Shown here: positions 3,612 through 8,228 of the stretch, in pieces
Layout of the letters: every line of letters starts with the position of its first letter
Numbering within the stretch: position 1 is the first letter of the stretch
Assembly (NCBI GenBank): GCA_963703315.1
Contig: OY969811.1
Coordinates: 1,472,001-1,536,000 of the forward strand
DNA length: 64,000 bases
Direction: 5' to 3'
Source of the DNA: an uncultured cyanobacterium
GTDB taxonomy: Bacteria > Cyanobacteriota > Cyanobacteriia > Pseudanabaenales > Pseudanabaenaceae
Notes under the pieces: generated by a model
Told to the model about the DNA's origin: nothing
The model's database searches: none
The model's input: only the letters and a program-made list of their open reading frames with translations
Program-made: the position numbers and the translations under genes

Positions 3612-3715
3612 TAAGTAGCTGGGCATAATTAAAAACCAGAACCAAAACCTGTGGCGCACGCGCAGCGTGCGCCACAGGTTTTGGGGTTTTATATTTAATT
3701 GCGCCCAGCTACTTA
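3612..3715. mobile_element. MITE-like element, family A (TAAGTAGCT...AGCTACTTA ends, central GTGGCGCACGC-N3-GCGTGCGCCAC hairpin)
   Basis: About 104 bp with terminal inverted repeats and TA at both ends; near-identical copies at 5402, 14732, 15816 and 48754. Confidence 0.8.
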
Positions 3716-3791: not shown

Positions 3792-3872
3792 TATAGCAGT
3801 GTAGGTTTTGCTTATGCCATAAACCCAAGAAGCGAGTGGCGACGTGAAACGCCGCCACTCGCTTCTTGGGTT
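3792..3872. repeat. Family C element fragment: TATAGC end plus palindrome overlapping the aat stop codon
   Basis: AACCCAAGAAGCGAGTGGCG...CGCCACTCGCTTCTTGGGTT (3822-3872); same arms at 12488 and 45604. Confidence 0.8.
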
Positions 3873-4464
3873 AGAGTTTAAAACTGCAAGTTTTTGTTAG
3901 AGATTGCTGCAACATCTTTTGATAGCTATCATCATCAATTTCATACGCCCCAAATCTCTCAAGGTGTGGGTTCATTAGCTGAGCATCAAATAAACCATAT
4001 CCCCGCGATCGCAAATGATCTACGAGCTTAACCATCGCTACTTTGGAACCTTCAGGAATTTTAAAAAACATTGACTCGCCGATAAAAACGCCCCGAATGG
4101 CAAGCCCTAAAATTCCACCAGCTAATTGATCACCTTGCCATGTCTCAAAGCTATGCGCCCAACCTGCTTGATGCAAATTAAAATATAGCGATCGCATTTC
4201 TTTGGAAATCCATGTCGTTTCGCGATCGGCACAACCCGATACAACCTGCTCAAAGGCACTATCGATCTTCACTTCAAAGCGATTTTGATTAATGACACGC
4301 TGCAAAGATTTGGGATATCGAAAGTATCGAAAGTGCTGATCGAGGGGAATCAAGGTACGTGCATTGGTGTAATACCACTCAATCGGCTGTCCATCGCCTT
4401 CGGACATCAAAAAGTAGCCTTGGGAATAACCATCAATAATGCTGCGGATATCAAACCTTTCCAC
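3871..4464 (-). CDS. aat: Leucyl/phenylalanyl-tRNA--protein transferase
   Basis: GY..GYFLM, TWI, AHSFETW, LAGGILG, FIGESMF, SKVAMVKL, LFDAQL.NPHL motifs. Confidence 0.93.
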   Translation of the reverse strand: MERFDIRSIIDGYSQGYFLMSEGDGQPIEWYYTNARTLIPLDQHFRYFRYPKSLQRVINQNRFEVKIDSAFEQVVSGCADRETTWISKEMRSLYFNLHQAGWAHSFETWQGDQLAGGILGLAIRGVFIGESMFFKIPEGSKVAMVKLVDHLRSRGYGLFDAQLMNPHLERFGAYEIDDDSYQKMLQQSLTKTCSFKL

Positions 4465-4647
4465 AAATTTCCAACTCGCGAGTAGAGAATTTAATGCTGT
4501 AACTTATTTTAAAGTCTCTTTACAAATCAACATAGTTATTCGTGTGATTCCAGATGGTCAAATCAGACAATTAAATGAAAAATCGCGCAGTATTTACATC
4601 GATTAACTTTCAACAACATCGAACTTTTAACAACATTCCAAAAGCTT

Positions 4648-4776
4648 AAAAAAATAAATGGCTCACTCGATTTAAGTAAAATTACTTATCTAGAGTGAAC
4701 CATTTATTTATATAAATTGTTCTTAAATTTGGTATTGAAGTTCAGAATCTTTAAATGAGCCGATTCCGTTTGAATG
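4648..4776 (-). ncRNA. Candidate sRNA, copy 1 (about 129 nt)
   Basis: Starts near CAUUCAAACGGA; 5' stem CGGAAUC/GAUUCUG; 3' terminator stem with U-tract; paralogous unit 345 bp away shows compensatory changes. Confidence 0.6.
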
Positions 4777-4814
4777 ATTATATTTTGCAAGATCTTGATC
4801 AAAAACTGGGATCG

Positions 4815-4831
4815 CTTAATATTTTCTTTAT
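4815..4831 (-). promoter_or_regulatory. Upstream motif of sRNA copy 1 (ATAAAGAAAATATTAAG on - strand)
   Basis: Conserved at an identical offset in copy 2 (5160-5176). Confidence 0.5.
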
Positions 4832-4991
4832 AATTCTAGTCGGCAATTTTACTTGAGTTTAAATACTTACATCAAAAGTCTTGATGGCTCTAAATCCCAT
4901 ATCTCTGAGTAAAAATACTTAGATTTTGTGTGTGGTTATCCCTAATTGACAAAATTAGCCGCGATTAAAACGAAATTATTAAGAATTCCTA

Positions 4992-5121
4992 TAAAAATAA
5001 GTGGCTTCTTGGAGCTAGGTAAAAATTACCATTTGCCTTAAGAAACCACTTATTTTGTTATTTGTTTATTAAGTTTGTATTTAAATTCAGAGCCTATATA
5101 TAAGCTGGCTCCGTTTGAATG
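4992..5121 (-). ncRNA. Candidate sRNA, copy 2 (about 130 nt)
   Basis: Starts near CAUUCAAACGGA; 5' stem CGGAGCC/GGCUCUG; terminator AAAAUAAGUGGUUUCUU...AAGAAGCCACUUAUUUUU. Confidence 0.6.
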
Positions 5122-5159
5122 TCTCTATTTTGATCGAAAATTTGTCACTTTGGGGATCA

Positions 5160-5176
5160 CTTAATATTTTCTTTAC
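5160..5176 (-). promoter_or_regulatory. Upstream motif of sRNA copy 2 (GTAAAGAAAATATTAAG on - strand)
   Basis: Same motif and spacing as copy 1; 27 nt upstream of a shared CAAAAT -10-like hexamer. Confidence 0.5.
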
Positions 5177-5401
5177 AGTTAATTTTCTAACTTTAAAGCT
5201 TGAGTATTTGTACTTATTCTTTTAGCTATTCTAAAACGTGTTTTTGACGATATTAGCTAGCATATTTATTGATTTGGACACCTATCTAATATTGATTTTT
5301 TTATTAAATTTACTGATTCTTTAATATTGACTTTTATATAGATTTATCTCTTTTTATATCGATACATATCATTTGCGTAACAAAGTTTCCCAAAAGCTGC
5401 A

Positions 5402-5506
5402 TAAGTAGCTGGGCGCAATTAAATATAAAACCCCAAAACCTGTGGCGCACGCTGCGCGTGCGCCACAGGTTTTTGCTCTGGTTTTTTAATTATGCCTAGC
5501 TACTTA
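5402..5506. mobile_element. MITE-like element, family A (opposite orientation to the 3612 copy)
   Basis: TAAGTAGCTGGGCGCAATTAAAT...TTAATTATGCCTAGCTACTTA. Confidence 0.8.
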
Positions 5507-5507
5507 G

Positions 5508-5523
5508 GTACGGAAACACGCAC
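5508..5523 (+). promoter_or_regulatory. K-box-like heat-shock element upstream of clpB
   Basis: GTACGG-AAAC-ACGCAC versus the recalled K-box GTTCGG-NNAN-CCNNAC of cyanobacterial chaperone promoters. Confidence 0.4.
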
Positions 5524-5609: not shown

Positions 5610-8228
5610 ATGCAACCAACTAATCCTAATCAATTTACTGAAAAAGCATGGGCGGCGATCGCAAGAACACCCGACGTGGTGAAAGCAGCCCAACAACAAC
5701 AAATCGAACCAGAACATTTGCTAAAAGCTTTGCTAGAGGAAGAAGGACTAGCAGCAAGTATTTTTAGCAAAGCGGGGATCAATATTCAACGGTTGCGCGA
5801 TCGCACCGATGAGTTTATTAATCGACAGCCCAAAGTATCGAGTTCTAATAGTGCAGTCTACTTAGGCAAAAATTTAGATGTATTACTAGATCGTGCCGAC
5901 AAGGAACGTAAAAGTTTTGGTGATGAGTTTATCTCCATTGAGCATATTCTGCTGCCCTACTGCAAAGACGATCGCTTTGGGAAGACCTTATATCAAGAAA
6001 TGGGACTTGATGAAGCTAAGCTCCGTAACATCATTCAGCAAGTCCGAGGCAATCAAAAAGTGACTGACCAAAATCCCGAAAATAAATATGAAGCGTTGAC
6101 CAAATATGGTCGCGATCTCACCGAACTGGCACGTGAGGGCAAGCTTGATCCTGTGATTGGGCGTGATGATGAAATTCGCCGCACGATCCAGATTTTGTCA
6201 CGCCGTACTAAAAATAATCCTGTCTTAATTGGTGAACCAGGAGTTGGTAAAACGGCGATCGCTGAAGGTTTGGCTCAACGCATTCTTAGTGGTGATGTGC
6301 CTGAATCGCTGCAAGGTCGTAAGCTGATTGCCCTTGATATGGGTGGACTGATTGCGGGTGCAAAGTATCGTGGTGAATTTGAGGAAAGACTAAAGGCAGT
6401 TCTTAAGGAAGTTACCGAGTCTAACGGTCAATTCATTCTATTTATCGATGAAATTCACACCGTCGTTGGTGCGGGCGCGACACAGGGCGCAATGGATGCG
6501 GGTAACTTACTGAAGCCCATGTTGGCACGGGGTGAGTTGCGCTGTATCGGTGCAACGACTTTGGATGAATATCGTAAATATATCGAGAAAGATGCCGCCC
6601 TTGAGCGTCGTTTCCAACAGGTATATGTCGATCAGCCGAATGTCGAAGATACAATCTCGATCCTACGTGGCTTGCGCGATCGCTACGAGTTACATCATGG
6701 TGTAAAAATCTCCGACACCGCACTAGTAGCCGCCGCCACTTTGTCGAATCGCTATATTAGCGATCGCTTTTTACCAGACAAGGCGATCGATCTGGTCGAT
6801 GAGTCTGCCGCCAAGCTGAAAATGGAAATTACTTCCCAACCTGAAGCCCTTGATGAAATCAATCGTAAGGTGATTCAGCTTGAGATGGAATGTCTGTCTC
6901 TGAAAAAGGAAACTGACCGCGAATCCCTAGATCGTCTGGAAAAACTGAATAAAGAATTAGGTGATCTCAAAGAAGAGCAAACCACCCTCAAAGCTCAATG
7001 GGAAGCCGAAAAGCAAGTCATTGATAACATCCGTAAGCTCAAGGAAGAGATTGAACACGTCAATGTGGAAATTCAGCAATATGAGCGCGATTACGATCTC
7101 AATAAAGCTGCGGAACTCAAGTATGGCAAGCTGACGGATTTACAGCGTCAATTAGAAGTTGGTGAGGTCAATCTTAAGGAAGCACAAACCTCTGGGCGAT
7201 CGCTCTTACGTCAAGAAGTTACTGAAGAAGACATTGCCGAAATCATTTCTAAATGGTCAGGTATTCCTGTCAGCAAGTTAGTTGAGTCTGAGAAAGAAAA
7301 ACTGTTACAACTCGAAGATGTACTGCATAATCGCGTAGTTGGTCAAGAGGAGGCAGTAACAGCGATCGCCGATGCGATTCAACGTTCTCGCGCAGGACTT
7401 GCTGATCCCAATCGCCCGATCGCCAGCTTCATTTTCTTAGGACCAACGGGTGTTGGTAAAACGGAACTGGCTAAAGCCCTTGCCGCTTATCTCTTCGACA
7501 CTGAAGAGTCAATGGTACGCATCGATATGTCCGAATATATGGAGAAACACAGCGTTTCCCGTCTAGTCGGCGCACCTCCTGGGTATGTCGGTTATGAAGA
7601 AGGTGGGCAACTTACGGAAGCTGTGCGTCGTCGCCCTTATGCTGTAATTCTCTTTGATGAAATCGAGAAAGCCCATCCCGATGTGTTTAACATCATGTTG
7701 CAAATCCTTGATGATGGACGTGTGACAGATTCTCAAGGTCGCACCGTTGACTTTAAGAATTCGATTATTATCATGACCAGTAACGTTGGTTCACAATTTA
7801 TTCTCGATATTGCAGGCGATGATTCTAAGTATGAAGAAATGCGCGATCGCGTGATGGAGTCGATGCGCTCTAGTTTCCGTCCCGAATTCCTCAATCGTAT
7901 TGATGAAATTGTGATCTTCCATGCTTTACGCCGCGAAGAGTTACGCCGTATCGTCAAGCTCCAAGTTCAACGTTTAGAGAAGAGACTAGGCGATCGCCGC
8001 ATGACGCTCAAACTTGCGGATGCTGCCCTAGACTTCATTGCGGAAGTTGGCTATGACCCTGTATACGGAGCGCGTCCATTAAAACGCATTATTCAGCGTC
8101 AATTGGAAACTCAAATCGCGAAGGGCATTTTACGTGGAGACTTCAGTGATGGCGACACAATTTTTGTGGACATTGAAAATGAACGTCTTGCCTTCAAACG
8201 GCTGTCCGCAGGTTTAGTTAGCGTTTGA
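5610..8228 (+). CDS. clpB: ATP-dependent chaperone ClpB
   Basis: N-terminus [14 protein letters not shown]; two Walker A motifs ([16 protein letters not shown]); coiled-coil middle domain; RBS AGGAGG. Confidence 0.97.

Follow-up and report, generated by a model that had tools for sequence, protein, structure and literature searches.

The aat-clpB intergenic region

Between the aat gene and the divergently transcribed clpB gene of an uncultured member of the Pseudanabaenaceae is a spacer that contains two diverged sequence units, one following the other with a period of 345 bp. A preliminary description of the window (the whole stretch of 64,000 nucleotides analyzed) had regarded these as tandem genes for structured non-coding RNAs, and both the units and their period were recovered here (73% identity over 80 nt, 89% over 28 nt). 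The features of the region are listed below in window coordinates; covariance model R3 is described in a later section.

3871..4464, - strand: aat, leucyl/phenylalanyl-tRNA-protein transferase, downstream neighbour (TIGR00667, above cut-off)
4646..4715, - strand: unit A terminator hairpin and U run (inverted repeat I2; fold)
4648..4775, - strand: predicted sRNA A, ~128 nt (predicted start 4775; fold; model R3, 47.6 bits)
4743..4768, - strand: unit A 5′ hairpin, 7 bp with 12-nt loop (fold and covariation)
4782..4787, - strand: unit A predicted -10 element, CAAAAT (sequence and family conservation of the -10)
4816..4830, - strand: unit A upstream box, TAAA-N7-TTAA, placed as in unit B; ranks second in the genome for the box matrix
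4991..5120, - strand: predicted sRNA B, ~130 nt (predicted start 5120; fold; model R3, 56.7 bits)
4994..5056, - strand: unit B terminator hairpin, then U run (inverted repeat I4; compensatory pairs)
5088..5113, - strand: unit B 5′ hairpin, 7 bp with 12-nt loop (covariation)
5127..5132, - strand: unit B predicted -10 element, CAAAAT (family conservation of the -10)
5161..5175, - strand: unit B upstream box, TAAA-N7-TTAA, RpaA-type, at -55..-41 of the predicted start
5610..8228, + strand: clpB, divergent neighbour (TIGR03346, above cut-off)

Read on the - strand, each unit consists of TAAA-GAAAATA-TTAA, a G, a 27-nt spacer, CAAAAT, six bases and a leader, after which come the 5′ hairpin (7-bp stem, 12-nt loop), a linker rich in A and U and the long hairpin of the terminator. 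The box, the 27-nt spacer, CAAAAT and CATTCAAACGGA (4765-4776 and 5110-5121) are located where the preliminary description had placed them, and both stems of each unit fold as it had proposed. The start of sRNA B was placed by reference to the published 5′ ends of homologues. It had also been claimed that the units share no small ORF; none is common to both, and no ORF of more than 66 aa lies wholly within the spacer. Type I toxin-antitoxin repeats, in which each RNA would face a small hydrophobic ORF that is conserved, were rejected on the former ground. Folding z-scores for the two units are -6.8 and -6.5 on the - strand as against -4.8 and -4.9 on the + strand, and in none of the four unit/strand folds was any of 200 shuffles as stable as the native sequence. 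A covariance model search of the whole genome returned these two units alone, together with their own antisense shadows; two further exact 12-mer matches both lack the surrounding unit context.

A dispersed mini-repeat whose inverted arms are 51 nt long (5402-5506) lies in the same spacer, between the sRNA pair and clpB, and has similar ends near 3612-3712. Many contigs from RNA runs map to this element, and the contig of a relative skips 5384-5506. Upstream of clpB, the sequence GTACGG (5508-5513) resembles the Rre1 heat-shock box.

Conservation of the hairpins

Among 46 aligned sequences, 99.7% of cells in the 5′ hairpin are paired and five of its seven pairs show compensatory changes, whereas controls in which the hairpin was slid gave 20-52% pairing. 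A set of 35 sequences from outside the Pseudanabaenaceae gave 99.6% pairing and again compensatory changes in five of seven pairs, the two sets overlapping and the kin within each not being independent of one another. Invariant in both are the closing C-G and a G-U pair, the latter strand-specific and kept in 46/46 sequences. The letters of the stem vary freely, but the closing pair, the length of the loop and the end of the loop are kept. The CATTCAAACGGA segment at the 5′ end, which had been suggested to be an invariant seed, is the same in both units yet varies across the family, where the conserved element is the hairpin. A second, paired copy of this hairpin is found inside 28 of 119 RNAs by a search that demanded a WAAA loop end, with G-C in place of the G-U pair in 23 of the 28, and up to three hairpins are present in the RNA of one genome (G153). 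A terminal hairpin with a T run closes 108 of 117 family units.

Covariation, together with the published 5′ ends of homologues, supports the earlier proposal that the units are sibling sRNAs on the - strand, some 130 nt in length, with the predicted start and with promoters of their own. Four RNA runs (X1-X4), having 6-8% of words in common, provided contigs of relatives alone, which mostly match the mini-repeat; one contig of 287 nt spans unit B and extends 111 nt further upstream, through the promoter. That the units are relics at the DNA level, such as the ends of mobile elements or repeats, would accord with the mini-repeat in the same spacer, but is extremely improbable given the two copies per genome, the G-U pair retained in every sequence and the detection of homologues by Northern blot.

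Distribution and duplication

A DNA search matched 23/24 genomes of the same genus. Model R1, built from 30 units, has a match in 65/71 Pseudanabaenaceae genomes and in 12/12 genera; within the genus of the window it matches 44/48 genomes, 31 of them with a tandem pair and 13 with a single copy, these 13 being drafts in which some matches lie near contig ends. Genomes from other genera of the family hold exactly one copy in 21 of 23 cases. Across the class, R1 matched 45/141 genomes at E ≤ 0.05, the hairpin being present in all 20 loci inspected, and model R2, which covers the 5′ domain (46 sequences), matched 89/150 at E ≤ 0.1. The covariance search of related genomes that had been recommended in the preliminary description has therefore yielded covarying homologues at both levels.

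A scan for the exact pattern, with each species represented by one genome, gave at least 120 matches, and among the 80 matches listed all were cyanobacterial except for three unlabelled bins and one contig labelled Candidatus Gracilibacteria. The last (L214) carries a full unit with box and is probably a misbinned cyanobacterial contig. No model match was obtained in families f2 (0/12, then 0/7), f4 (0/11, 0/4) and f15 (0/5, 0/3) or in most of f8; the models do miss diverged members, since R2 missed SyR11 in a genome-wide search. Viral contigs contributed 71 loose matches, none with the box or leader context. A near-identical unit B is present in a named Pseudanabaena record, which makes Pseudanabaena the most likely genus of the window.

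A single branch of the tree separates the A-type from the B-type units (support 93/96), and an A and a B taken from one genome resemble each other no more closely than do A and B units of different genomes (5′ domain, 0.76 vs 0.76; spacer, 0.32 vs 0.34). The duplication is therefore old, and both copies have been kept without homogenization. In one locus (L021, G018:C144) unit B stops at the end of the linker, where unrelated sequence takes over, perhaps as the result of an insertion. In family f20 (L161, L162 and L163) another hairpin, sharing the stem but with a shorter loop, stands ahead of the RNA, and no clear upstream box can be made out.

The position of the pair raises the question of whether the units act in cis as a leader or attenuator of aat, through read-through of the actuaton type. 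At 13/20 loci in other Pseudanabaenaceae genera aat is the downstream gene and has the same orientation; outside the family, however, the neighbours differ, with yqeG often upstream and a downstream gene that varies in both kind and strand. The terminal hairpins described above and the occurrence of the Nostoc members (see below) as discrete RNAs also speak against a cis-acting leader, which is very unlikely.

Relationship to SyR11 and catalogued RNAs

The preliminary description could assign the units to no known family, but SyR11/Ncr1160 of Synechocystis 6803 belongs to the family defined here, as do three sRNAs catalogued in Nostoc. Clear members are found behind yqeG in two genomes of the genus Synechocystis (53.8 and 50.4 bits), and a diverged member occupies the same position in a third (G419), where it is the sole match to the core pattern. 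This member maps to TU2440/ncr1160 at a constant offset of 2174 (PMC4195498 Table S1), ncr1160 being SyR11 (PMC6693541), and it is matched exactly, at its first bases and at its terminator, by the SyR11 primers listed in the supplement of PMC5721685. The 5′ end of the SyR11 primer is the start predicted by the promoter rule, and the box begins there at -55, as in the window units. Model R2, built without SyR11, scores it at only 20.3 bits, and for this reason a reverse test was run with model R3, constructed from 35 sequences outside the Pseudanabaenaceae with SyR11 included. R3 recovered both window units with the scores listed above and nothing else in the genome, the next match scoring 16.9 bits.

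SyR11 resembles the window units in the closing pair of the 5′ hairpin, the UAAA loop end, the box at -55, the CAnnnT-type -10, the A-rich linker and the terminator. It differs in being ~90 nt in length, single copy and located behind yqeG, whereas the window genes are two paralogues of ~130 nt, flanked by clpB and aat, and their genome lacks sigE. The Nostoc sp. PCC 7120 members, 3754398f (97 nt), 4360388r (144 nt) and delta 26612r (81 nt), all contain the hairpin; in Table S3 of PMC4734099, two are marked as Northern-validated and no Pseudanabaena homologue is ticked. Unlike the window pair they are separate, unnamed entries, and 4360388r has two hairpins in one RNA. With these homologues, the window units are very probably small RNAs of the SyR11 family that act in trans and are paralogous to one another.

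Comparison with Rfam, including PsrR1, Yfr1, Yfr2/Cyano-1 and NsiR9, had been put forward as a check, and matched no family in the window or in nine homologous loci; the window gave weak microRNA-type hairpin matches only, and the nine loci tRNAs alone above threshold. PmgR1/Ncr0700, which is also a free-standing sRNA of cyanobacteria and whose 5′ stem looks superficially alike, was rejected. It differs in its separate locus, its tetraloop and the lack of a model match, R2 giving none at the PmgR1 locus (L136) with filters off, and genome G174 holds a PmgR1 homologue and a SyR11-family RNA apart from one another. The PmgR1 locus and genome G419 were found through published PmgR1 primers (PMC8682795 supplement). 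CsiR1 has been described as an slr1214 leader whose sequence is not conserved. In the literature searched, which misses most subscription journals and theses, no paper was found on a SyR11 family, its promoter or its mechanism, nor were the breadth of the family, the TAAA-N7-TTAA box at -55..-41, the second hairpin copy or the tandem pair; conservation of this RNA may already be listed in the supplements of PMC12873609 (409 predicted structures) and PMC6693541.

Promoter architecture

In the -10 element, -11 A and -7 T are invariant among 30 units, and an extended -10 of the form TGnNAnnnT is present in 94/117 family units compared with 28/480 controls. At least seven of the eight bases of TAAA-N7-TTAA occur at the expected place in 94 of 119 distinct units compared with 8/480 control windows further upstream, and the gap from box to core is fixed at 33 nt in all 31 aligned rows. 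RpaA binds such a sequence head-to-tail at the kaiBC promoter of Synechococcus elongatus, upstream of the -35, with a footprint of -58 to -36, within which the box at -55..-41 would fall (PMC12916501). There, RpaA binding has been demonstrated and an mRNA is driven, whereas the window boxes are predicted binding sites and would drive an sRNA. RpaA is encoded in the genome (E = 6.6e-136), as are the kai genes. The same box-plus--10 architecture is found at sigE in three Synechocystis-genus genomes, and for Synechocystis the rule puts the start of sigE at the published position, -202. In Synechocystis, sigE and PmgR1 are RpaA-dependent.

It thus appears that the weak extended -10 promoter of each unit would need an activator of the OmpR type at -55..-41, and the geometry of the box suggests that this activator is probably phosphorylated RpaA, the circadian output regulator. 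Against this, no strong box was found at the kai operon of the window's own genome, where the best scores are 6.1 and 4.0 bits, neither at promoter position, and a genome-wide scan for box plus -10 produced 20 matches against 7-18 in shifted controls. Were the box bound by another OmpR-type regulator (PhoB/SphR, RpaB or one linked to cold), the RNAs would be real but controlled by stress and not by the clock. The 11-bp period and TTAA core do resemble a Pho box, and the SyR11-containing unit TU2440 is highest at 15 °C (PMC4195498 Table S1), with the RNA more stable at 20 °C. However, a Pho box needs three tandem TTAA repeats where the family shows two half-sites, and TU2440 is not induced without phosphate in the same table (369 vs 1104 reads); the HLR1 repeats of the RpaB regulon have a 10-bp period rather than the 11 bp seen here. 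Control by one of these regulators is accordingly considered unlikely. Also counting against RpaA, TU2440 has its fewest reads (19) in the dark, although the start given for this unit is 88 nt upstream of the SyR11 5′ end (PMC4195498 Table S1).

The third-best box-plus--10 promoter in the genome precedes rbp, a gene for a glycine-rich RRM protein (G000:C1:691924-692446, L425). The best site is at the same position in 11/14 orthologues from the genus, reaching at least 8 bits in only three, and beyond the genus that score is attained in 0/16 best hits from the family and 1/29 from the class. A link between the RNA and this RRM protein is a weak lead, confined to the genus.

Mode of action

Unpublished evidence that SyR11 activates sigE is mentioned in PMC5721685; being unpublished, the suggestion was not taken to define the family. 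If the RNAs act by base-pairing, the 5′ leader and 5′ arm of the stem would open and pair with mRNA leaders, that of sigE in Synechocystis and those of other genes elsewhere. The sigE leader of Synechocystis can pair over 11 bp, at about -63..-48, with nucleotides 7-22 of SyR11 (z = -2.0), and the promoter shared with sigE in that genus also fits such a relationship. Against it, SigE is absent from the window's genome, which encodes SigA and one group 2 sigma factor only (G000:C1:549571-550581 and 3235404-3236666), and orthologues, called at ≥421 bits with the next at ≤307, occur in 23/36 RNA-bearing genomes, with none in 5/5 of those from Pseudanabaenaceae. Pairing between sRNA and sigE reached z ≤ -2 in 2/24 pairs (one of 25 was skipped, and start codons were chosen crudely). 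Target prediction, also proposed in the preliminary description, gave on a genome-wide scan no overlap of A and B above chance, the two top-100 lists having three genes in common where 2.5 are expected. Base-pairing is for these reasons a somewhat unlikely mode of action.

Four other Pseudanabaenaceae genomes have two sigma genes of this kind and one has three, compared with 3-7 elsewhere. In G174, a near-perfect 17-18-nt complement of the 5′ end of the G174 sRNA (L376) is found ~285 nt ahead of the sigE start; it sits inside the 3′ end of the upstream gene and is possibly due to chance.

Because sigE is absent here and its pairing is unconserved, a protein-binding hairpin is favoured, and the freely varying stem letters at fixed geometry, the second hairpin in some RNAs and the retention of duplicates also fit protein binding better. 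The working part would be the 5′ hairpin, with its 7-bp stem, closing C-G and loop of 10-13 nt that starts with a purine and ends in UAAA or UAUA; this may bind and titrate a putative RNA-binding protein, so that the fate of the protein's mRNA clients would be altered at a set time of day. Dosage would be raised by gene duplication in the genus of the window and, in other lineages, by repetition of the hairpin inside one RNA. The chances that the hairpin titrates a protein are judged to be about even.

The protein-sequestering RNAs CsrB and RsmZ offer an analogy in the way they work, with a repeated hairpin module, redundant copies and a response-regulator box upstream; the family differs from them in having no GGA loops and in that no copies of its hairpin were detected in mRNAs of the window's genome. 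In that genome, hairpin copies in mRNAs are not above controls (five intergenic matches, including the two units; controls 2-44), which argues against a mimic of the CsrB type, since this would predict mRNA-borne copies. Cyanobacteria lack a working CsrA according to a Grad-seq preprint (bioRxiv 2020.07.02.184192).

Significance

The pair is real and belongs to a known but uncharacterized kind of RNA, and its value lies in the view of the family that it affords, namely its conservation, its RpaA-type box, its repeatable hairpin and its persistence without sigE. This persistence means that sigE cannot be the sole reason for the existence of the RNA. In the literature searched, SyR11 is named and has been seen on Northern blots, but no mechanism has been published for it. 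Its membership of a wide family, marked by a defined hairpin and an RpaA-type box, opens its function to direct tests in model strains; three unnamed Nostoc RNAs are now tied to the same family. Two open questions, how the clock acts after transcription and which proteins are bound by cyanobacterial sRNAs, could be addressed through this RNA. Taken as a whole, it is tentatively proposed, at less than even odds, that the family, with SyR11 as its type member, is a so far unrecognized, near class-wide set of clock-output RNAs, turned on by RpaA, that sequester an RNA-binding protein through a repeatable hairpin and have been amplified independently, by doubling of the gene in the genus of the window and of the hairpin in other lineages. 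If this is true, a protein-sponge layer would lie between the Kai clock and the fate of mRNA in cyanobacteria.
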